A stretch of DNA of 64,000 nt from Bacteroidota bacterium (GTDB taxonomy: Bacteria > Bacteroidota > Bacteroidia > Bacteroidales > SZUA-534). The notes beneath the pieces were generated by a model. The model was not told the DNA's origin. It saw nothing but the letters and a program-made list of their open reading frames with translations, and did not search any database. The position numbers and the translations under genes are program-made. This document shows positions 25,257 to 62,585 of this stretch, one piece after another. Location of the stretch: contig QKGS01000052.1 of NCBI GenBank assembly GCA_003250355.1, positions 1,908 to 65,907 of the forward strand, written 5' to 3'. Within the stretch, counting starts at the first letter, position 1. Every line of letters starts with the position of its first letter.

Positions 25257-25331
25257 TCGGGGCAAGAAGATTCGAACTTCCGACCCCACGCCCCCCAGAC
25301 GTGTACTCTAACCTGACTGAGCTATGCCCCG
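25257..25331 (-). tRNA. tRNA-Pro (anticodon GGG)
   Basis: Hand-folded cloverleaf. Acceptor CGGGGCA/TGCCCCG. D arm GCTC...GAGT. Anticodon stem CACGT/GCGTG with loop CTGGGGG. T arm GGAAG-TTCGAAT-CTTCT. No encoded CCA. Confidence 0.85.
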
Positions 25332-25441
25332 ATTTTGTGCTGCAAAAGTAATTTTTTAAATATTATTTCAAAACCATATTTCTAAAAATCTTTATTTTAT
25401 TATATTGCTATTACCATTTTTCTTTATCATATTTGCACCCG

Positions 25442-25620
25442 TATGGTGGAATTTTCCTTTACTTGGAAAATCCTTAATATGGGAATCTCGTTAAAATCGA
25501 GAGCTGTACCCGCAGCCGTATGCCCGAACCAACACTTTGTTGGTTTGTATTTTCAAACTACAACCACTGGGTAACACCGGGAAGGAATTGAAAATCGGGA
25601 AAGCCGGAAGACCTGCCATA
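25442..25620 (+). ncRNA. Cobalamin (B12) riboswitch
   Basis: Conserved core AATATGGGAATCTCGTTAAAATCGAGAGCTGTACCCGCAGCCGTA, B12-box-like CAACCACTGGG...GGGAAGG, and AAAGCCGGAAGACCTGCCATA closing P1 with TATGG at 25442. Located upstream of the cbi operon. Confidence 0.85.
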
Positions 25621-25846
25621 TCTGTTATTACGTAACAATGCTTTCGGGAATAAAGGCTGCAATGATTCTTATTTTGAATTCATTCATAAAACTTTTATAA
25701 GCAACAAACTTTAGGGACTGATTTTTCTGTAAGTGGTTATTTAATATATACACCGTTTACCTGATTACAAAAAGCCTTATTTGTTGATTATACTTTACCT
25801 GCCTGCATTGTTTTTATTTGATTATTAATGATTTAAATAACATACT

Positions 25847-44630: not shown

Positions 44631-46445
44631 TTACTTTATTTTTTGGTTTAGATTTGAAATTATATTGCCTGCTTTTTTGTAAATATCGGCAGTGCCGCCC
44701 GATACTGCCGATGGAGCATAGCGGGCAAACTCGCATGAATTAAGTAATTCCATAAGCTCATTTATTGCTTCTGTATCAACAGAATGTGATTTAAGTATAC
44801 CTTCAACATTGTCTTTTGACAGGTTTGAAACAGGTATTGAAAGTTTATCGCTTAAGAAACCCCACATAGCTTTAAGTATTTCTTCATAAAACAGAGCATC
44901 TTCATTGTTTTTCATATGCAATGCTGCTTTTTTAAGTCGCTTTTGCGAAACCTTACCTGCTTTACGGTTTTTCATTTTTGCCTGATTGGCATTTTGCTTA
45001 ATGCGGTTACGCTGAATAGCCAATATTACAATAAAAAGTGCAAGAGAACCAAATATTATTAAATAATACTCTTTGGAACCAAACAAAAAATCTTTCTTTT
45101 TGTAAAGTTCATAATTAGTTTTTATAAAGCGTATATCCTGCCCCAAAAAGCGGACATCTTCTTTGCTTACTCCCTGCACTACTCCTGAACTTTGTGCCTC
45201 GCTGTTTTCTCCGCGGGTCACATTTATTTCAAACTCATCGGAAGTGTGTGTCTGGTATGTTTTTGTTTTTGTATCGAAATATGTAAACTTAACAGGTGGT
45301 ATACGGTAAGTTCCGGCAAAGCGCGGTATTATTAAATAATTGAACGATACACTGCCTGTAACTCCGTTTGTTCCGGCATCGGTTTTAAGTGTTGTTTTTG
45401 GGTCGTATACATCAAGGTCGGGTGGAAAGTCAACTTTCAATGGTTTTATAAGTTTCATGTTCCCGTTTCCTGAAATACGTATTCGCAAATTAACAGCTTC
45501 GTTTGCCGCAATATCGGTTTTGTCAATAGCTGCAACCATATCCATGTCTCCAACAGCTCCGTTAAAATCGGCAGGCTTATTGGCCGGTAGTGGTTTTACA
45601 TTTATGGTAATAGGTTTACTTTTTACATTCTTTTTAACTGTACGATATGAGCCCCCGAAAAAATCGTCGAAAGGGTTGTTGCTACGTACCTGCTGACGTA
45701 CAAGCATTGTAATATCGAATGGTTCTATTGTTAGTTCGCCACTACGCTGCGGGAATAAAAGTGTCTTTTTAAATACCCCCACTTCGTATATTTCGCCATT
45801 TACATTTTCGCGGGTAAGTTGTATTTGTTGGGGTGTTTCTATGTCCTGACTCCAAAAACCGGTATAGGCAGGGAATTTTATATCCTCAAAACCGGCAAGC
45901 GAAACTTTTGTATATACTTTAATAGTAGCTGTTAAATGCTCGCCCTGATAAAGGTTACGCTTATCAACATCGACCGATACATACAAATCGGTACCGTTTA
46001 CTGTTCCTGTACTTTGTTGTGAGCCTTGGTTTTGTTGATTATTGCCGCCCGCCTGAGCCTGCTGTTGCCCCTGAACAACCTCAATCTGCCTTGCCGGTGT
46101 GGAATAATCTTTTCGCCCTACTTTTATGGTTGCCGAAGGTATTGTAAATGTTCCTTCTTGCTGTGCCATAAGTATATACGTGTAGGTAAATGACTGTTCT
46201 TGTGTCATTTGACCATTAATTATTTGTACACTACTACTACTCGACACATTGGGGCCGCTTAATACTGAAAAACCGTCGAGCGATGGCCAGTGAAAATCTT
46301 TACCCCGTTCGTTTACCGCAAAAGATAAACGGAACTGCTCTCCAACCCGAACAACTTTTGGTGCCGATGCGGTAAATTCTACCTGAGCTTTTAATGCTAC
46401 TGCTGCAAATAATAACAGCCATACTACACTAAATTTCTTTATCAT
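44631..46445 (-). CDS. batD: BatD aerotolerance-operon protein
   Basis: 604 aa. Signal peptide, a large beta-rich ectodomain, one TM near residue ~470 and a cytoplasmic tail. Position is between batC and batE. Confidence 0.75.
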   Translation of the reverse strand: MIKKFSVVWLLLFAAVALKAQVEFTASAPKVVRVGEQFRLSFAVNERGKDFHWPSLDGFSVLSGPNVSSSSSVQIINGQMTQEQSFTYTYILMAQQEGTFTIPSATIKVGRKDYSTPARQIEVVQGQQQAQAGGNNQQNQGSQQSTGTVNGTDLYVSVDVDKRNLYQGEHLTATIKVYTKVSLAGFEDIKFPAYTGFWSQDIETPQQIQLTRENVNGEIYEVGVFKKTLLFPQRSGELTIEPFDITMLVRQQVRSNNPFDDFFGGSYRTVKKNVKSKPITINVKPLPANKPADFNGAVGDMDMVAAIDKTDIAANEAVNLRIRISGNGNMKLIKPLKVDFPPDLDVYDPKTTLKTDAGTNGVTGSVSFNYLIIPRFAGTYRIPPVKFTYFDTKTKTYQTHTSDEFEINVTRGENSEAQSSGVVQGVSKEDVRFLGQDIRFIKTNYELYKKKDFLFGSKEYYLIIFGSLALFIVILAIQRNRIKQNANQAKMKNRKAGKVSQKRLKKAALHMKNNEDALFYEEILKAMWGFLSDKLSIPVSNLSKDNVEGILKSHSVDTEAINELMELLNSCEFARYAPSAVSGGTADIYKKAGNIISNLNQKIK

Positions 46446-46695: not shown

Positions 46696-47442
46696 CTACC
46701 AATCTTTCTCACTCTTCACATTCCTTGGCTGAGCCTTTTGTTTCTGAACTTTTTCCTGAACATCTTTTTCATCGTTTTGCAATGCTTCAAGTATTCTCAT
46801 AGCATCTTCTTTCGATATTTTTTCAGGATTACCCTGTTGTTCTTGTTCATTTTGCTGTTGCTGTTGCTGTTGCTGGTCTTGATTTTGCTGCTGTTGCTGC
46901 TCATCTTCGTTCTTATCCCGATTTTGGTCTTGTTCTTGTTGGTCTTGCTGTTGCTGTTGCGGTGGCTCCTGATTCTTTTTGTTTTGCGCCCATGCTAAAT
47001 TGTATTTTGTTTCAAAATCGTCAGGATTATTACGCAGAGAGTTTTTATAAGCTTCTATAGCTTCGTCGAGCTTTTGGTTAAACAGATACGAATTGCCCAT
47101 ATTGTGATATGCCTTAGCAAGCTTTTCTTTATCGGATTGATTCATGCCTGTAACTGCCTGATACTGACGGATAGCATCTTCGTATTTTCCCTGCTTATAT
47201 AGGCTGTTGGCAACATTGTAAAGTGCATCCCAGTTGTTAGGGTCTTTTTCCAATGCTTTACGATAGTCAGCCTCGGCCGATTGATACATTGTTGTATCTA
47301 CGGTTACCGAGTCAATAACAGCTTTTTTATAATCGCGGTTTCCCCTGCGAATATGTTTACGTTCGTCTTGTCCGCTCATTTGCACGTAAGTGCCGGCAAG
47401 CAGTAATAGTAGTGTTAGTATTTTTAGTTTGTTCATAATCAT
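46696..47442 (-). CDS. batC: BatC-like TPR protein with Q/D/E-rich tail
   Basis: 248 aa. Signal peptide, TPR repeats (ALYNVANSLYKQGKYEDA; AYHNMGNSYL), then a poly-Q tract. Confidence 0.75.
   Translation of the reverse strand: MIMNKLKILTLLLLLAGTYVQMSGQDERKHIRRGNRDYKKAVIDSVTVDTTMYQSAEADYRKALEKDPNNWDALYNVANSLYKQGKYEDAIRQYQAVTGMNQSDKEKLAKAYHNMGNSYLFNQKLDEAIEAYKNSLRNNPDDFETKYNLAWAQNKKNQEPPQQQQQDQQEQDQNRDKNEDEQQQQQNQDQQQQQQQQNEQEQQGNPEKISKEDAMRILEALQNDEKDVQEKVQKQKAQPRNVKSEKDW
46834..46959 (-). repeat. CAA/CAG-rich low-complexity tract encoding a poly-Q/D/E segment of BatC
   Basis: The plus strand is runs of TTGCTG/CTGTTG. The protein reads QQQQQDQQEQDQNRDKNEDEQQQQQNQDQQQQQQQQNEQEQQ. Confidence 0.9.
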
Positions 47443-47483
47443 ATTATTTATGCCGCTAATTTGCGAATATATTATTCCAGTTT

Positions 47484-47626
47484 GTTGCGATGCATATTAT
47501 CTTTGCACTTCCAATTCTTATGCTCTGCTTGCATCGCTTTTGTTATTGCCACTTTACCGTGGGGTTAGCTTCGCTGAATTTCAATTCACCCACGGCTATT
47601 ATATATCGCCCCGTTGGGGCTTTTTA
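47484..47626 (+). repeat. Copy A of a three-hairpin intergenic element (batC-batB spacer)
   Basis: P1 is GCGATGCA (47487-94) / TGCATCGC (47530-37). P2 is CCGTGGG (47557-63) / CCCACGG (47589-95). P3 is GCCCC-GTT-GGGGC (47608-20) followed by TTTTT. Homologous to 50127-50245. Confidence 0.8.
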
Positions 47627-47792
47627 TCTATTTATCTTTATCCCCTCTCCCTGTGGGTATCTATCCAATGGGAGAATAGCACTATATCAACAGTTATGCT
47701 AAATTGGAGTAAATATCCTTTTTATAAATCAATATAATAATTTTCAAATTCCATCATTCTCAAATTTTCACATTATTCTAATTTTCACATTA

Positions 47793-47827
47793 CTGCCTAC
47801 TGTGAACTGAATACTGCCAACTTCATT
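47793..47827 (-). repeat. Post-stop heptamer module; the minus strand reads GTTGGCA GTATTCA GTTCACA GTAGGCA G
   Basis: Starts 4 nt after the batB stop. About 27/35 identical to 62725-62759, which starts 3 nt after the DUF1641 gene stop. The two share the exact 11-mer ATACTGCCAAC (plus strand; 47811-21 and 62749-59). Confidence 0.8.
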
Positions 47828-48872
47828 ACTTCGCCAACAGATTATCTTTAAATAAATTTATCCCACTGAGCTTTCTGTTTTTTCTGAATAAAATAAAGAA
47901 TTCTACAAAAAGTAATAACAATGCAAAGCCTAAGAAATACTGATACTGTTCCTCATATTCTGAATAAACTTTCGCTTCCATTTCAGCTTTATCGAGTTGC
48001 TTTAGTTCATCGAAAAGTGCATTTAAACCTGTTTTTGTGTTATTGGCACGTATTGATTTTCCTCCACCGGCCGAGGCTATTTTGCTAAGCATTACCTCGT
48101 CGAGTTTTGAAATTACAACATTGCCTTGTTTGTCGGTTCTGTAATCCTTCTGTCCGTAATTGTTGTAAACAGGTATTGGTGCTCCTTTGGGCAATCCCAT
48201 ACCAATGGTATAAACCTTTATGCCTGCATCGTCGGCTGCTTGAGCCATTTCAACAGCATTTTCCTCATGGTTTTCACCATCGGTAATTATTACTATTGCC
48301 TTATTGTTTTCATCGCTTGGCGTAAAGCTTTTCATAGCCAGTTCTATGGCCGAACCTATTGCTGTACCTTGGTTTGAAATAAGGCTTGGATTAATAGTGC
48401 TAAGGAACATTTTTGCTGCGGTATAATCGGTTGTCATGGGCAATTGTACATAAGCATCGCCGGCAAAAACTATCAAAGCTATTTTGTCATTTTGCAGCCT
48501 GTCTACAAGCTTTGAAATAGCTCGCTTGGCATTTTCCAAACGGCTTGGAACTATATCCTCGGCAAGCATACTGTTTGAAATATCGAGAGCTATAACCATT
48601 TCTATCCCTTCACGTTTCGACTCACGTAATTTTGTACCAAACTGTGGTCCGGCCAAAGCAATAATAGCAAGCATAAGCGCTGTTTCTACCACCACCAACT
48701 TCACCCACGGACGCGACTTCGATGCATCGGGCATGAGTGCAGCTATAAGCTTTGAGTCGCCAAATGCCTGCAAGGCTTTTTTTCGGGCTCTACGGCCAAA
48801 TAAAAATACTATCCCCACTGCCGGAAGCAGTGCCAGTAAGTATAAAAATTCAGGTTTTGCAAATTGGAACAT
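47826..48872 (-). CDS. batB: BatB (VWA-domain, membrane-anchored)
   Basis: 348 aa. N-terminal TM and the VWA MIDAS motif VIALDISNSM. Confidence 0.85.
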   Translation of the reverse strand: MFQFAKPEFLYLLALLPAVGIVFLFGRRARKKALQAFGDSKLIAALMPDASKSRPWVKLVVVETALMLAIIALAGPQFGTKLRESKREGIEMVIALDISNSMLAEDIVPSRLENAKRAISKLVDRLQNDKIALIVFAGDAYVQLPMTTDYTAAKMFLSTINPSLISNQGTAIGSAIELAMKSFTPSDENNKAIVIITDGENHEENAVEMAQAADDAGIKVYTIGMGLPKGAPIPVYNNYGQKDYRTDKQGNVVISKLDEVMLSKIASAGGGKSIRANNTKTGLNALFDELKQLDKAEMEAKVYSEYEEQYQYFLGFALLLLFVEFFILFRKNRKLSGINLFKDNLLAK

Positions 48873-48887
48873 ATTCTGTTTTATTAA

Positions 48888-48915
48888 GTTGCAAGTTACA
48901 GGTTACAAGTTGCAA
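48888..48915 (+). repeat. Heptamer array GTTGCAA GTTACAG GTTACAA GTTGCAA
   Basis: Read directly from the sequence. Ends 16 nt upstream (in gene sense) of the batB ATG. Same family as the arrays around the four-helix-bundle gene. Confidence 0.9.
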
Positions 48916-48978
48916 GTTTTCGTATTCTGAAAACCTTATTCTTGAACCTAAATCTCACTTATATTATTATCATTTTTC

Positions 48979-49010: not shown

Positions 49011-50006
49011 TTAAGGCACATTCCTCAATATCGTTGTTCTAATAACCAACTCAATAAGCAGAAGTAATACTCCTAACAGTAGAAAAGGGAAATATTCTTC
49101 GTTCTTTTTACTGTATTCTTTTACTTCTATTTTTGATTTTTCAAGCTTATCGATATTTTGGTAAACAGCCTCCAGCCGTTCGTTATCAGTTGCACGGAAG
49201 TACTCTCCATCGGTCAAATGAGCTATTTGGGTAAGTACATCTTCATCTATGTCAACATCCATATTCTGATAGCGCTTTCGTCCGAACATATCCATAACAG
49301 GATATGGTGCCTGCCCGCGAGAACCAATACCTATGGTATATACCCTTACTCCCATTGTCTGAGCAATTTCGGCAGCTGTTAACGGTGGTACTTCACCACT
49401 GTTATTTACACCATCGGTCATTAGTATTACTACTTTACTTTTGGCTTCACTATCCTTCAGGCGGCTTACTGCATTAGCCAATCCAAGCCCCATTGCAGTA
49501 CCATCTTCAATTAGTCCTTCTTTAACATCGTTAATAAGGTTTATAAGAACAGCATGGTCGGTTGTTAGCGGACATTGGGTAAAGCTCTCTCCTGCAAACA
49601 CTACTAAGCCTATACGGTCGTTTGGTCTGCCTGATATAAATTTAATTGCATCGGCTTTGGCAGCTTCCAGTCGGTTTGGCTTAAAATCTTCGGCAAGCAT
49701 TGAACCCGATATATCGAGTGCTATAACTATATCAATACCCTCGGTCGATGTGTTGTTCCAGTTATCGGTACTTTGCGGACGAGCCAAAGCTATTATAAGT
49801 ATTGCTAAAGCCAATACTCTGAGTACTGCAGGTATATGTCGTAAATAGTATTTGTACGATTTTGATACCTTACCAAACCCTTTAATTGTTGACATATTAA
49901 TAGATGCCTGATAGCTGTTGCGCTTCCATACATAGTACGCTATCATTGGTACAAGCAATAACAGCAGGTATAGTATGTTTGGATTGTTGAATGTTATTTC
50001 GTTCAT
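49011..50006 (-). CDS. batA: BatA (VWA-domain, membrane-anchored)
   Basis: 331 aa. Two N-terminal TM segments, VIALDISGSM MIDAS motif, C-terminal TM. Confidence 0.85.
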   Translation of the reverse strand: MNEITFNNPNILYLLLLLVPMIAYYVWKRNSYQASINMSTIKGFGKVSKSYKYYLRHIPAVLRVLALAILIIALARPQSTDNWNNTSTEGIDIVIALDISGSMLAEDFKPNRLEAAKADAIKFISGRPNDRIGLVVFAGESFTQCPLTTDHAVLINLINDVKEGLIEDGTAMGLGLANAVSRLKDSEAKSKVVILMTDGVNNSGEVPPLTAAEIAQTMGVRVYTIGIGSRGQAPYPVMDMFGRKRYQNMDVDIDEDVLTQIAHLTDGEYFRATDNERLEAVYQNIDKLEKSKIEVKEYSKKNEEYFPFLLLGVLLLLIELVIRTTILRNVP

Positions 50007-50010
50007 GTTT

Positions 50011-50059
50011 CTTGATGCTAGATACTAGATTCTGGATTCTGGATGCCTGACTCTAGTTG
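50011..50059 (+). repeat. Heptamer array CTTGATG CTAGATA CTAGATT CTGGATT CTGGATG CCTGACT CTAGTTG
   Basis: Read directly from the sequence. Begins 5 nt from the batA ATG. Confidence 0.9.
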
Positions 50060-50126
50060 CTCCGTTTCTTTCCAATTATTTTTAATCTAGTATGTAAATT
50101 ATCATTATATATTTTTCTTTTTCTTA

Positions 50127-50245
50127 GTTGCGATGCATGGTTTCCATTTTTTCAAAATTGACCGAGCTGCTTGCATCGCTTTTTTGCCATCATTCCGTGG
50201 GTTAAAACCCACGGCTATTATAGTGTCGCCCTTACAGGGCTTTTA
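50127..50245 (+). repeat. Copy B of the three-hairpin intergenic element (spacer between the hypothetical gene and batA)
   Basis: P1 is GCGATGCA (50130-37) / TGCATCGC (50172-79). P2 is CCGTGGG (50195-201) / CCCACGG (50208-14). P3 is GCCC-TTACA-GGGC (50228-40) followed by TTTT. Confidence 0.8.
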
Positions 50246-50272
50246 TTTGCGTTGCTATAACTACAAATCTAC

Positions 50273-51301
50273 TCACAACTTCTTACTTCCCTCTTCACTC
50301 TGCAGACTGCCTGCTGAAGACTGCTGACTTGAATCTTCCTCAACTTCTTCACTGCTCTCTTGTTCCACAACCTTAGTTCGCTCTACAAACTCATAGGCAA
50401 ATCTCATGCTTCGTTCGTTTTCGTCGGCCATGGCTGCTCCTTTGGCAAATTTTACCAAATCGGCTAGCTGAAGCATTCCTTTCAACGAATCTTTAGCATC
50501 GGGTGAAATATCCTTAATCGGCTTAATCATCTGAATAATCTCGCCTGTGGTTAATTCCATTGCCAATACCCCAAACCGGTCTTCAATATATGTACGTACT
50601 ATATCGGTAAGGCGAGAGTAGTATTCTTTGGTATCGCCGCTTTGCCATATTTTAGCTTCGCGCAAATGGTCGAGTTCACGAAATGCTATAATATGAGCCG
50701 GTTCTTTTGGTGCTTCTTTTTTTACAAACACAGGCTCTTTTTTTACAAATCGCTTATAAACATACCAAGTAATAAATGCCAGTAATAAAGCCAATAAACC
50801 ACCAAAAGCAAAAGGGGCAACCTCTTTAAAAATAACAGGAGCTTCCATTGGTGCTTTAATATCGGTAATAGCATTGGGGTTTGCAGAGTCGAGCTGCATG
50901 GTCATTACACCAAAGTAAACCGGATTTGTTTTGGCTGAATCTGCTTCAATGCTATTGGGCCATATTATCTGCATTTTGGCCGGTGGCAATTCATACCAAC
51001 CGCTATCGAACGATGTTACAAGCATTTTTTGTTCTACGTGAACTAAGTCATTTTCGTAAGTAGTATCATATTTAAAATGCTCAAGTATTTCAAGTTCGCC
51101 AATAATAGTGTCGGCAAATATCGGGAACTCTACATTAACATCTTTAGGAAATGATGCTTTGATACGGTAATATGTCTGGTCGCCAATAAGCATAATATTG
51201 GTATCCATTTTGGCTTCGAGTGTAACCTGAGCTTTAATGGTATTACCCATTAGAACAGCAGAAAGCAGAAGCAGCAAGTATATTTTTGTTGTTTTACTCA
51301 T
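50273..51301 (-). CDS. Conserved Bat-operon membrane protein of unknown function
   Basis: 342 aa. Signal peptide, one central TM (FAFGGLLALLLAFITWYVY) and an acidic S/E-rich tail. Occupies the slot between the DUF58 gene and batA. Confidence 0.6.
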   Translation of the reverse strand: MSKTTKIYLLLLLSAVLMGNTIKAQVTLEAKMDTNIMLIGDQTYYRIKASFPKDVNVEFPIFADTIIGELEILEHFKYDTTYENDLVHVEQKMLVTSFDSGWYELPPAKMQIIWPNSIEADSAKTNPVYFGVMTMQLDSANPNAITDIKAPMEAPVIFKEVAPFAFGGLLALLLAFITWYVYKRFVKKEPVFVKKEAPKEPAHIIAFRELDHLREAKIWQSGDTKEYYSRLTDIVRTYIEDRFGVLAMELTTGEIIQMIKPIKDISPDAKDSLKGMLQLADLVKFAKGAAMADENERSMRFAYEFVERTKVVEQESSEEVEEDSSQQSSAGSLQSEEGSKKL

Positions 51302-51303
51302 AG

Positions 51304-52173
51304 TTAGGCTCCCCTGTGTTTAAATAAGTAAATAAGTGGTTTCACATAATCGTCGCCGGTTGCAACTGTGGCATAATCAACACCGCTAAGTTTAAATTTA
51401 TCTTCAAGTTTTTGAGTATGTTCATGCCACCATTCGGCGTAGGCATCACGTACACGCTTACTCGATGTGTCAATCCAGTTGGCCTGCCCCGTTTCTGAAT
51501 CAATCATTTTCACAAGTCCCATTTTTGGTATTGTTGTTTCGCGTTGGTCAAAAACTCTAAGACCTACAATGTCGTGCCTGCGGTTTGCAATAGTTAGTGC
51601 ATTTTTAAAATCGGGCGATATAAAATCGGATATTATAAACCCTATGCTCCGCTTCTTTATGGCATTGGTAAGATACTCTAAAGCAACTGCAATATTAGTC
51701 TCTTTACTTTCCGGTTCAAAATTCAGTAGTTCCTGAATTATGCGAAGAATGTGTTTGCGACCTTTCTGTGGCGGTATAAATTTTTCTACTTTATCGCTAA
51801 AAAGTATTACCCCTATTTTATCGTTATTATTGATAGCCGAGAACGATATTACTGCGGCTATTTCTGTCATTAGTTCCTGCTTGTACTGAACATTTGTTCC
51901 AAAGCTTTTTGAACCGCTAACATCAACAAGCAGCATAACAGTAAGTTCACGCTCTTCTTCAAAAACTTTAACATACGGGTGATTAAAGCGGGCAGTTACG
52001 TTCCAGTCTACATCGCGTATTGCGTCGCCGTACTGGTACTCTCGTACCTCGCTGAAGGTCATCCCTTTTCCTTTAAAAGCACTATGGTATTCGCCCGAAA
52101 ATATCTGGTTCGATATTCCGCGGGTTTTTATCTCTATATGCCTTACTTTTTTTAACAGATCTGTTGTATCCAT
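51304..52173 (-). CDS. DUF58-family protein (MoxR partner)
   Basis: I chose the start at ATG 52173-52171 (MDTTDLL...); the track's 52188 start is a TTG codon. GEYHSAFKGKGMTFSEVREYQYGDAIRDVDWNVTAR is the DUF58 hallmark. Confidence 0.85.
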   Translation of the reverse strand: MDTTDLLKKVRHIEIKTRGISNQIFSGEYHSAFKGKGMTFSEVREYQYGDAIRDVDWNVTARFNHPYVKVFEEERELTVMLLVDVSGSKSFGTNVQYKQELMTEIAAVISFSAINNNDKIGVILFSDKVEKFIPPQKGRKHILRIIQELLNFEPESKETNIAVALEYLTNAIKKRSIGFIISDFISPDFKNALTIANRRHDIVGLRVFDQRETTIPKMGLVKMIDSETGQANWIDTSSKRVRDAYAEWWHEHTQKLEDKFKLSGVDYATVATGDDYVKPLIYLFKHRGA

Positions 52174-52181
52174 GTCTCCAT

Positions 52182-52260
52182 GTTGCAAGTTGCAGGTTAC
52201 AAGTTACAAGTTACAGGTTGCGAGTTGCGAGTTGCGAGTTGCAGGTTACAGGTTACAGGT
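52182..52260 (+). repeat. 11-unit heptamer array (GTTRCRR)n
   Basis: GTTGCAA GTTGCAG GTTACAA GTTACAA GTTACAG GTTGCGA GTTGCGA GTTGCGA GTTGCAG GTTACAG GTTACAG GT. Lies between the four-helix-bundle gene stop and the DUF58 gene start. Confidence 0.95.
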
Positions 52261-52301
52261 TTTTAATACACTCAATCTTTAACCTATCTGCAATTAACAT
52301 C

Positions 52302-52673
52302 TTACTTATCGTCTCTCCAACTTTCCTCTACATACTGTAGGAACTTGTATAACATCCTGCTTAATTTATCATACTCTTCCATTAACTGAGTTAATGGGGT
52401 ATCCTCAAAATGTAATTCACTAATCATTTCAAGCTGCGACATAGCTTCATCGCATGATGCATGAGCGTAAACCAAAAACTTTACAAACTCATTTTTATAT
52501 CTCTTTCTTCCGTAACCTTCAACAATATTATCTTTTATACTTTTTGTCGAACGTCTTATCTGACTTCCTAGTTCGTATAACTCATATTTAGGTAGTTGCA
52601 TAGTCATTTTATGCACATCAATAGCTAACCTGTAAGCCAACTTATATACATCTAAATCTCTATAACTCTTCAT
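52302..52673 (-). CDS. Four-helix-bundle protein (23S rRNA intervening-sequence protein family, PF05635/TIGR02436-like)
   Basis: 123 aa. SYRDLDVYKLAYRLAIDVHKMT...LGSQIRRSTKSIKDNIVEGYGRKRYKNEFVKFLVYAHASCDE matches the family consensus pattern. Confidence 0.85.
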   Translation of the reverse strand: MKSYRDLDVYKLAYRLAIDVHKMTMQLPKYELYELGSQIRRSTKSIKDNIVEGYGRKRYKNEFVKFLVYAHASCDEAMSQLEMISELHFEDTPLTQLMEEYDKLSRMLYKFLQYVEESWRDDK

Positions 52674-52698
52674 TTTATATTTTATGTGAGCAAATAAT

Positions 52699-52730
52699 AA
52701 CTTGTAACATGCAACTTGTAACCTGTAACT
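52699..52730 (-). repeat. Inverted copy of the GTTRCRR heptamer array; the minus strand reads A GTTACAG GTTACAA GTTGCAT GTTACAA GTT
   Basis: Read directly from the sequence. Starts 2 nt after the moxR stop and lies upstream of the four-helix-bundle gene. Inverted relative to 52182-52260. Confidence 0.9.
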
Positions 52731-52732
52731 AG

Positions 52733-53728
52733 TTAAGGAACTTCCACTGTATTCAGTATCTCACTTATAATACCTTCAGAAGTAATATTTTCAGCTTCGG
52801 CCTGGTAAGTTAACCCAATACGGTGGCGTAATACATCGTAACATACAGCACGTACATCTTCAGGAATTACATATCCGCGGCGTTTTATAAAAGCATATGC
52901 TTTAGCTGCTTTTGAAAGGTTAATGCTGGCACGCGGCGAACCTCCAAAGCTTATCATGTCTTTAAGTTTTTCCAAACCATAATTGTCGGGATAACGAGTA
53001 GCAAATACTATGTCAACAATGTATTTCTCTATTTTCTCGTCCATATAAACCTCTTTTACTACGTCGCGGGCTTTAATAATATCGTCTTTTGTAAGTACTT
53101 TATTTGCGGTAGGGAATTCTTTTGCAATATTTTGACGAACAATTAACTGCTCCTCTTCTTTTTTCGGATAGTTAATGATTGTTTTCAGCATAAAACGGTC
53201 AACCTGTGCTTCGGGAAGCGGGTATGTACCTTCTTGCTCAATAGGGTTTTGAGTTGCAAGAACAAGGAACGGTTTTTCAAGCTTAAATGTTTCATCGCCT
53301 ATAGTTACCTGCTTTTCCTGCATAGCTTCGAGCAATGCACTCTGTACTTTTGCCGGTGCACGGTTTATTTCATCGGCCAACACAAAGTTTGAAAAAATAG
53401 GACCTTTCTTAACGTTGAATTCCTCGTTTTTCTGGCTGTAAATCATAGTACCCAATACATCGGCAGGAAGTAAGTCGGGGGTAAACTGAATACGGCTAAA
53501 ATCGGCATCGATAGTAGTTGCCAATGTGTTTATTGCCAGTGTTTTTGCCAATCCGGGAAGCCCCTCAAGAAGCACGTGCCCGTCTGACAATAACCCAATT
53601 AATAAACTTTCAACCAACGACTTTTGGCCTACTATTACTTTGTTCATTTCTATGTTAATCATATCTACAAATGAACTTTCACGCTGTATTTTTTCGTTCA
53701 ATTCTTTTATGTCAACTGTCTGACTCAT
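52733..53728 (-). CDS. moxR: MoxR-family AAA+ ATPase
   Basis: 331 aa. Walker A LLEGLPGLAKT, Walker B FVLADEINRA. Confidence 0.95.
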   Translation of the reverse strand: MSQTVDIKELNEKIQRESSFVDMINIEMNKVIVGQKSLVESLLIGLLSDGHVLLEGLPGLAKTLAINTLATTIDADFSRIQFTPDLLPADVLGTMIYSQKNEEFNVKKGPIFSNFVLADEINRAPAKVQSALLEAMQEKQVTIGDETFKLEKPFLVLATQNPIEQEGTYPLPEAQVDRFMLKTIINYPKKEEEQLIVRQNIAKEFPTANKVLTKDDIIKARDVVKEVYMDEKIEKYIVDIVFATRYPDNYGLEKLKDMISFGGSPRASINLSKAAKAYAFIKRRGYVIPEDVRAVCYDVLRHRIGLTYQAEAENITSEGIISEILNTVEVP

Positions 53729-62368: not shown

Positions 62369-62550
62369 ATTTATATAGTTTATTTGTTTAACCCGTATTA
62401 TTCATTAGGTTCTCAATATTTTCATTAATCAATTATTAATCAGCACCTTTAGCTTTGCTGAGCTCCACTTCGTTACGGTTCTAATGCAACGCATTTACTC
62501 ACCCTATCGGGCTTCGTGAGATCGCTGCGCTAAGTTGAGCGGGCTGAACC

Positions 62551-62585
62551 CAGATGGTTAATTGATGTTTTCCATTAACCATCTG
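62551..62585. repeat. 12-bp perfect-stem hairpin CAGATGGTTAAT - 11 nt - ATTAACCATCTG
   Basis: Read directly from the sequence, inside the 394-bp spacer between the DUF1641 and tusE-like genes. Confidence 0.85.

Follow-up and report, generated by a model that had tools for sequence, protein, structure and literature searches.

Two three-hairpin modules in a Bacteroidota Bat operon belong to the Acido-Lenti-1 family and are probably gene-less repeats of a Y1 transposase system

What are two GC-richer, hairpin-forming blocks in the spacers of a Bat operon, where they read antisense to the genes around them? The blocks lie in a stretch of 64,000 nucleotides (nt) of contig QKGS01000052.1 (positions 1,908 to 65,907, forward strand; assembly GCA_003250355.1), and this whole stretch is called the window in the following. 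It belongs to a metagenome-assembled genome (MAG) of a Bacteroidota bacterium from a hydrothermal-vent metagenome, and the sequencing runs in which it was found are all DNA runs. Judged by the homologues of its BatB, the organism falls among Marinilabiliales/Salinivirgaceae-like Bacteroidota. A reading made from the letters of the DNA without database searches (the sequence-only reading) had described the blocks as two copies of a three-hairpin element, which might be a small antisense RNA gene or, on the operon strand, a stabiliser or processing site similar to repetitive extragenic palindromes (REPs). We found that both blocks are members of the Rfam family RF01687 (Acido-Lenti-1). Our favoured reading, which we hold to be probable, is that they are gene-less, REP-like members of this repeat family, that the family belongs with a Y1 transposase of subclass 1.2, and that the blocks are miniature mobile DNA.

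The repeat was confirmed at 47484-47626 (copy A) and 50127-50245 (copy B), on the plus strand and antisense to the Bat operon in both cases. The parts follow in the order that had been described, i.e. hairpin P1, a T-rich spacer with TTGCCA, hairpin P2, the linker CTATTATA, hairpin P3 and a T-run. Common to both copies are GTTGCGATGCAT (47484-47495 in copy A and 50127-50138 in copy B), CTGCTTGCATCGCTTTT (47525-47541 and 50167-50183, 0 mismatches) and CCCACGGCTATTATA (47589-47603 and 50208-50222). For the 17-mer CTGCTTGCATCGCTTTT the chance expectation in the window is 0.16 matches when up to 3 mismatches are allowed; the long exact blocks common to copies A and B are far beyond chance. The P2 loops differ as reported, 25 nt in copy A against 6 nt in copy B, where a 4-nt loop on an 8-bp stem is equal to 6 nt on a 7-bp stem. 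The P1 loops of copy A (35 nt) and copy B (34 nt) are mutually unrelated, and there is no common sequence 5' of P1. The minimum-energy fold of the RNA of either strand consisted of the three hairpins with z-scores of -2.4 to -3.3 versus shuffled sequence, and the plus-strand DNA folded with z-scores of -4.4 and -4.8. The pattern of a GC hairpin followed by a T-run is seen on the plus strand only, antisense to the operon, and falls short of an intrinsic terminator. A protein-coding reading of the plus-strand open reading frames (ORFs) at 47490-47702 and 50133-50327, with the ATG inside GCGATGCAT, was rejected, as the shared block CTGCTTGCATCGC stands at offsets of 35 and 34, i.e. in different frames.

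The covariance model of RF01687 matched P2, linker and P3 on the plus strand of both copies. Copy B scored 38.1 bits over the full model (positions 1-46) and passed the gathering score of 37. Copy A gave a partial match of 26.6 bits; its score is low because the 25-nt loop insert splits P2. The layout of RF01687, an 8-bp hairpin, a GGCUA-nnn-UA linker and a short GC hairpin, is present in both copies as CCGTGG..CCACGG, CTATTATA and GCCC(C)..(G)GGGC. A second model, termed R1, was built from 20 modules of other organisms, none from the window, and was calibrated in a shortened procedure, so that its E-values are rough (E ~1e-6 for copy B with 43.1 bits and E ~2e-4 for copy A with 31.4 bits, both matched over their full length). 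In the alignment of copy B with R1, P1 was placed on hpX, the first hairpin of the family and the one proximal to the transposase gene (see below), with a loop insertion of 33 nt; P1 is thus the counterpart of hpX. Across the 64-kb window R1 found no third match below E = 0.2. In the contigs of the source-sample metagenome two short partial matches to copy A were obtained at 80% likeness with ~62% of the run read, and these were of no use.

RF01687 was described as a two-hairpin, probable non-cis-regulatory RNA of Acidobacteria and Lentisphaerae that is sometimes found near group II introns (Weinberg et al. 2010, PMC2864571). Rfam types it as 'Gene; sRNA' (small RNA) and gives no function, and a 2026 preprint reports Acido-Lenti-1 copies in Tannerella and speculates on regulation. 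There is no group II intron near copies A and B. The part of both window copies from P2 to P3 aligns to the 46-nt model; the window unit differs by the additional upstream hairpin P1/hpX, by its Marinilabiliales-like Bacteroidota host and by the character of dispersed, transposase-linked DNA. Taken together the window copies are further members of a known, functionally unexplained family.

The distribution of the family was obtained with the exact 22-nt core of P2 and linker, CCGTGGG-N(4-30)-CCCACGGCTATTATA, in a collection with one genome per species that lies outside the window's own genome. The exact core was found in 56 stretches from rumen and gut Bacteroidales, Muribaculaceae, Prevotellaceae, Cyclobacterium, Chitinophagaceae, Blastocatellia (Acidobacteriota) and Planctomycetes. 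Many copies in these other genomes were intergenic and occurred as singles, inverted pairs and clusters; the rumen Bacteroidales isolate RGIG3374 had 32 exact cores, among them an array of 6 units that repeats every 71 bp. When aligned on the core, the copies of each lineage shared a common architecture of hpX, a spacer of ~20 nt, P2, a conserved YTAT linker and P3. The stems of hpX and P3 are lineage-specific in sequence and always pair. At the 3' foot of P2 the unpaired bases C (79%), T (94%), A (76%) and T (65%) are conserved, in contrast to the 5' side of P2; this CTAT reads ATAG on the other strand.

The claim that all three helices are under selection was upheld by 78 distinct R1 hits from independent loci. 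Standard pairs filled 90.3% of the pair cells, compensatory double changes were present at 19 of the 20 pairs, and the covariation score was 0.551; slid controls reached 0.03-0.10 and shuffles 0.17. With 65 G:T pairs versus 19 A:C pairs the modelled top strand is the strand that is selected to fold. Based on crude ORF calls, 90 of the 94 model hits in dispersed loci were intergenic and their orientation towards the neighbouring genes was unbiased: between co-directional genes 15 copies were sense and 19 antisense, 15 lay between convergent and 8 between divergent genes. Inverted pairs were frequent, either head-to-head or tail-to-tail. Of 178 family copies no more than 9 had a T-run after P3.

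Some further observations were made on the modules, for which the fetched loci are denoted by L-numbers. A rumen Bacteroidales genome contains P2-P3 units in tandem arrays of up to 6-8 with periods of 71-74 bp (L044 1985-2437, L020 3775-4400 and L002 2840-3076). Several modules of RGIG3374 (L010, L022, L047, L052 and L055) have a variant segment of ~40 nt, TTTAGTTCTCCGCTTCGCTATCGAAAGCTYCACTGGAGCTTTCTTCA, with its own hairpin between linker CTATTATA and P3; the repeats of this isolate are built from interchangeable parts. P2 loops often hold extra inserts of 12-30 nt, many with a small hairpin of their own (window 47564-47588, L016, L028, L030, L048, L110 and L144), such as TTAGC-TTC-GCTGA in window copy A and GCGATGC..GCATCGC in L110 and L144. 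P2 tolerates or attracts nested insertions. The insert of copy A had been said to be echoed further downstream by TTAGCTTTGCTGA (62449-62461). It agrees at 12 of 13 positions, for which chance alone predicts 0.12 matches, it is no R1 hit and has no similarity to the fetched loci, and we regard it as not significant; it lies in a GC-richer patch of short hairpins (62440-62585) that matched neither the module model nor the fetched loci. Finally, loci from Acidobacteriota and Planctomycetota (L001, L030, L036, L048 and L054) have a 22-nt core identical to that of Bacteroidota loci with different flanking hairpins. This suggests that a conserved protein imposes a strong constraint or that the core has passed from phylum to phylum, and contamination of MAGs would be a further explanation.

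Which protein might handle these modules? Clustering of the ORFs near dispersed copies did not reveal a recurrent neighbouring protein. A filter for an HUH...Y motif over all fetched loci left two ORFs, and both matched Pfam Y1_Tnp, L020 3220-3762 from RGIG3374 with E = 1e-19 and L050 1871-2320 from Cyclobacterium with E = 3e-21. In L020 a reverse module ends ~25 nt 5' of the start codon and the forward array starts 13 nt 3' of the stop codon. In L050 the gene lies between two pairs of modules, each made of a forward module followed by a reverse one, with the hpX ends toward the gene.

The association was then assessed at 85 loci of homologues, from five named genomes and 80 metagenome loci. 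R1 gave 84 hits in 41 of them, with a module no more than 150 nt from the gene in 35; these and the following counts are lower bounds, as many contigs end near the gene and R1 favours one P2 variant. Within this distance the modules upstream of the gene were on the minus strand in 23 cases and on the plus strand in 3, those downstream on the plus strand in 28 and on the minus strand in 5. An inverted pair enclosed the gene at 16 of the 35 loci, a module was present on the left side only at 7 and on the right side only at 12. Typically 0-30 nt separated the upstream module from the start codon and ~10 nt the stop codon from the downstream module, and hpX pointed toward the gene on both sides. 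The RF01687 model, which is independent of R1, identified modules next to the Y1 gene of Acidobacteriota locus L147 with 61.0 bits downstream (plus) and 35.5 bits upstream (minus). At the Y1 gene of Prevotella (L150) it detected an inverted pair with 37.8 and 34.7 bits, and inverted pairs were also obtained at several metagenome loci, these scores being at or near threshold.

A hidden Markov model (HMM) of the protein, applied to the 56 dispersed stretches and the window, found the L020 and L050 genes only, and the 23 stretches of RGIG3374 held one Y1 gene. Thus gene-less modules vastly outnumber the gene. Within the genomes of RGIG3374 and Cyclobacterium, hpX and P3 of the dispersed copies are those that flank the Y1 gene. 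In an uncultured Cyclobacterium (L005), at the site orthologous to the L050 Y1 gene, all that is left between a reverse and a forward module is the ATG and roughly the final 7 codons. This unit is a gene-deleted derivative and recurs in tandem every ~415 bp (L005 4566-4650 and 5030-5060, compared with L050 1816-2330).

The Y1 proteins comprise 147-150 amino acids (aa) and carry the motifs DH[IV]H, WQ and Y-x3-Q-x2-HH, with YI(K/D)NQxxHH around the tyrosine. Residues H54, H56, W94, Y114, Q118, H121 and H122 are invariant in the alignment. The flanked genes share with TnpA-Y1 subclass 1.2 the length (~148 aa), the motifs, the low copy number and the occurrence in Bacteroidota; the subclass was described with a median of 148 aa, Y---Q--HH, low copy number and occurrence in Cyanobacteria and Bacteroidetes (Quentin et al. 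2018, PMC6006769). Its members were listed without REPs and generally without terminal structures of the IS200 type (PMC6006769). In contrast, a module abuts the gene at 35 of the 85 loci analysed here, and homologues were also present in Acidobacteriota and Calditrichota.

How did the modules get into the Bat operon? The closest Bat operons obtained were those of L057, L059 and L061, whose BatB proteins are 81%, 77% and 75% identical, respectively, to that of the window; L057 and L061 are the two relatives with long contigs. The batB/batC junction, which harbours copy A in the window, measures 2 nt in L057, 48-78 nt in L059 and 12 nt in L061. The junction between the 342-aa ORF and batA, the place of copy B, measures 2 nt, 650 nt and 0 nt, respectively, and the 650-nt spacer of L059 is made of unrelated repeats. 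No RF01687 or R1 match was found in the Bat operons of the three relatives. Compact junctions without the element in relatives mean that copies A and B are located within lineage-specific inserted DNA. Judged by this comparison, the ancestral Bat operon was compact and the spacers with copies A and B were gained in this lineage. Outside the modules the spacers are AT-rich (~240 nt around copy A and ~150 nt around copy B), and for this remainder neither the window nor the fetched loci gave a significant similarity. GC skew follows the coding strand and is uninformative on the direction of replication.

Because of the strict inverted bracketing of the Y1 gene, the match of gene flanks and dispersed copies and the derivative that has lost the gene, we propose a function for the family. 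In our assessment Acido-Lenti-1 is probably not an RNA gene. It would instead be the single-stranded DNA recognition repeat of subclass 1.2 Y1/HUH transposases, and the two would form a second, independently evolved counterpart of the system of REPs and REP-associated tyrosine transposases (RAYTs), of which the Bat copies are activity relics. As part of the same proposal, this second system would be characterised by a three-hairpin unit with CTAT as 3' flank and would extend across Bacteroidota, Acidobacteriota, Planctomycetota and other phyla. A literature search retrieved neither a published statement of Acido-Lenti-1 as the recognition repeat of subclass 1.2 nor a paper linking this subclass, or any transposase, to Acido-Lenti-1.

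By analogy to TnpA of IS608 and TnpA-REP of E. coli (PMC6006769) the Y1 enzyme may recognise the P2 hairpin and the adjacent tetranucleotide on single-stranded DNA. Cutting and rejoining at the P2 site would then disperse modules in trans. In the organism of the window a putative matching enzyme would have acted in this way. Two modules landed there in previously compact junctions of the Bat operon, both in an orientation that puts the terminator-like P3 with its T-run on the non-transcribed strand. As the modules, read in the direction of the operon mRNA, have no T-run behind a hairpin, read-through of the operon would be preserved. The hairpins of the modules are also predicted to form in the polycistronic Bat mRNA, where an effect on stability or processing would be a by-product and may resemble that of E. 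coli REPs.

The element works in the manner of REP/RAYT systems but lacks two of their defining features, a class 2 enzyme and the 5' GT[AG]G. Like REP/RAYT and the REPtron of E. coli, the family has, in genomes other than that of the window, many short intergenic hairpin repeats in the form of singles, inverted pairs and clusters, at the family level a single-copy Y1/HUH gene bracketed by inverted repeats (e.g. L020 and L050), and a conserved tetranucleotide at the foot of a hairpin. On the other hand, the enzyme is a 148-aa relative of IS200 transposases from subclass 1.2 and not a class 2 RAYT/TnpA-REP (YxxxNP), each unit consists of three hairpins where a REP has a single one, and CTAT 3' of P2 takes the place of the canonical 5' GT[AG]G. 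With IS200/IS605 elements such as IS608 and ISDra2 it shares a related Y1 enzyme, gene-less derivatives and hairpins of the kind that lie just inside the ends and are recognised on single-stranded DNA. Yet the end hairpins of IS200/IS605 are both on the top strand, whereas the modules flanking the gene here are inverted; and IS200/IS605 moves as a unit in several near-identical copies, whereas here a single-copy gene faces far more modules. The inverted ends (23 of 26 upstream modules minus, 28 of 33 downstream modules plus) and the single-copy gene ruled out that the system is an IS200/IS605 element.

The proposal offers a testable function for an abundant Rfam family that has been without one for 16 years, and the same evidence gives a DNA partner to a transposase subclass that had been described as lacking one. 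If it is true, annotations of Acido-Lenti-1 as non-coding RNA genes in genomes are mislabelled. For the window it removes a candidate regulatory RNA, and the blocks are better annotated as repeat or mobile DNA than as a Bat-specific sRNA.

Several results weigh against this proposal. Two window copies were directly seen, and these are only 76% identical in nucleotide sequence with unrelated loops, so they must be old. The protein HMM found no Y1 gene within the 64-kb window. At 44 of the 85 Y1 loci, many of them short contigs, R1 with its bias to one P2 variant had no hit at E of 0.01 or below. The alignments used for counting pairs were fitted to the model, which favours structure. The relatives are too distant for nucleotide-exact empty sites in the Bat operon. 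The P1 sequence with its 8-bp stem and 34-35-nt loop differs from every hpX collected; a regular-expression search for hairpins of the P1 type in all fetched loci returned only unrelated P2-loop inserts, and a metagenome scan for the P1/P2 junction of the window, TGCATCGCTTTT..TTGCCA..CCGTGGG, had 0 matches. Furthermore, we know of no subclass 1.2 enzyme for which cutting or joining activity was demonstrated.

Compatible with a mobile origin, yet in our estimate unlikely, is a co-option of the modules as a cis-acting structure in the minus-strand operon mRNA, where they would act as 3'-end protector, processing site or attenuation site and, as a part of this idea, set different levels for the MoxR/DUF58, BatA/B and BatC/D segments. 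Both copies are inside a co-directional operon, the three hairpins also form in the minus-strand RNA and are no less stable there than on the plus strand (z-scores of -2.9 and -3.3), and REPs of E. coli stabilise upstream mRNA and attenuate transcription (reviewed in PMC6006769). However, the structure is not conserved at the junctions of the relatives, where genes abut or overlap, and the family is tied neither to particular genes nor to the sense orientation. Of the REP-like alternative in the sequence-only reading the class of element was right; the role as stabiliser or processing site on the operon strand is kept as a rival with a low probability.

A clearly smaller chance is given to the idea that the module is recognised by another protein or carried by other vehicles, e.g. 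in the interior of miniature transposons that belong to unrelated transposase families. The link to Y1 would then be secondary, for instance by Y1 genes inserting beside hairpins. That adjacent modules were seen at only 35 of 85 Y1 loci with the threshold used and that an exact core is common to three phyla would fit this idea. Against it stand the strict geometry with hpX facing the gene and narrow distances of 0-30 nt before the start and ~10 nt after the stop, the finding that hpX and P3 of the gene flanks are those of dispersed copies within a genome, and the gene-deleted derivative that retains both modules. These three observations fit a matched pair of enzyme and repeat better than a chance neighbourhood. 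Least probable of all, by our reckoning, is the antisense sRNA gene of the sequence-only reading, a plus-strand transcript of ~120-145 nt from just 5' of P1 to the P3 terminator that would act on Bat mRNA or in trans: the terminator-like P3 with T-run in both copies, the Rfam type, the conserved structure and the excess of G:T over A:C on the top strand speak for it, but the T-run is rare in the family, copies A and B share no sequence 5' of P1 that could be a common promoter, family copies have no orientation bias relative to genes and are arranged in inverted pairs and tandem arrays and around transposase genes, the Bat operons of the three relatives lack the element, and tolerance of G:T is equally expected of a single-stranded DNA substrate, so that this claim is not supported and the mobile repeat stays the favoured reading.

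Table 1. Positions of the modules, their parts and the surrounding Bat operon in the window
Feature	Position	Strand	Evidence or detail
Copy A, three-hairpin module	47484..47626	+	R1, 31.4 bits, E 2e-4; RF01687 partial match 47589-47621, 26.6 bits
Copy A P1	47487..47537	+	GCGATGCA 47487-47494 / TGCATCGC 47530-47537, 35-nt loop; folds
Copy A P2 and linker	47557..47603	+	CCGTGGG 47557-47563 / CCCACGG 47589-47595, 7-bp stem, 25-nt loop insert 47564-47588; linker CTATTATA 47596-47603
Copy A P3	47608..47625	+	GCCCC-GTT-GGGGC, then TTTTT
Copy B, three-hairpin module	50127..50245	+	R1, 43.1 bits, E 1e-6, full length; RF01687, 38.1 bits at 50195-50241
Copy B P1	50130..50179	+	GCGATGCA 50130-50137 / TGCATCGC 50172-50179, 34-nt loop
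Copy B P2 and linker	50195..50222	+	CCGTGGGT-TAAA-ACCCACGG, 8-bp stem, 4-nt loop; linker CTATTATA 50215-50222
Copy B P3	50228..50244	+	GCCCT-TAC-AGGGC, then TTTT
batB/batC spacer, 383 nt	47443..47825		contains copy A
342-aa ORF/batA spacer, 266 nt	50007..50272		contains copy B
MoxR ATPase	52733-53728	-	Pfam
DUF58	51304-52188	-	Pfam
342-aa ORF	50273-51301	-	
BatA	49011-50006	-	Pfam
BatB, VWA	47826-48872	-	Pfam
BatC-like, TPR	46696-47442	-	Pfam
BatD	44631-46445	-	Pfam

Elsewhere in the window a cobalamin riboswitch (25427-25634, plus strand, 76.7 bits) lies beside a tRNA gene (25257-25331, minus strand, 57.2 bits), and both are ordinary. Repeats of other kinds were observed in the Bat operons as well. 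The relatives have long spacers of their own at other junctions with different repeats (L059 4340-4991 and 1277-2427, with GTTGAGCGTAGCGAAAC units, and L057 5797-6000), and within this clade repeat DNA recurrently lands at Bat operon junctions. In the window, runs of 7-base repeats of the GTTGCAA/GTTACAG type are located in further spacers of the operon (48886-48920, 52182-52263 and, inverted, 52698-52730); mirror-image runs bracket a 123-aa ORF (52302-52673, minus strand) that is inserted between the MoxR and DUF58 genes. Repeats of at least two kinds, unrelated to each other, have thus entered this Bat operon.

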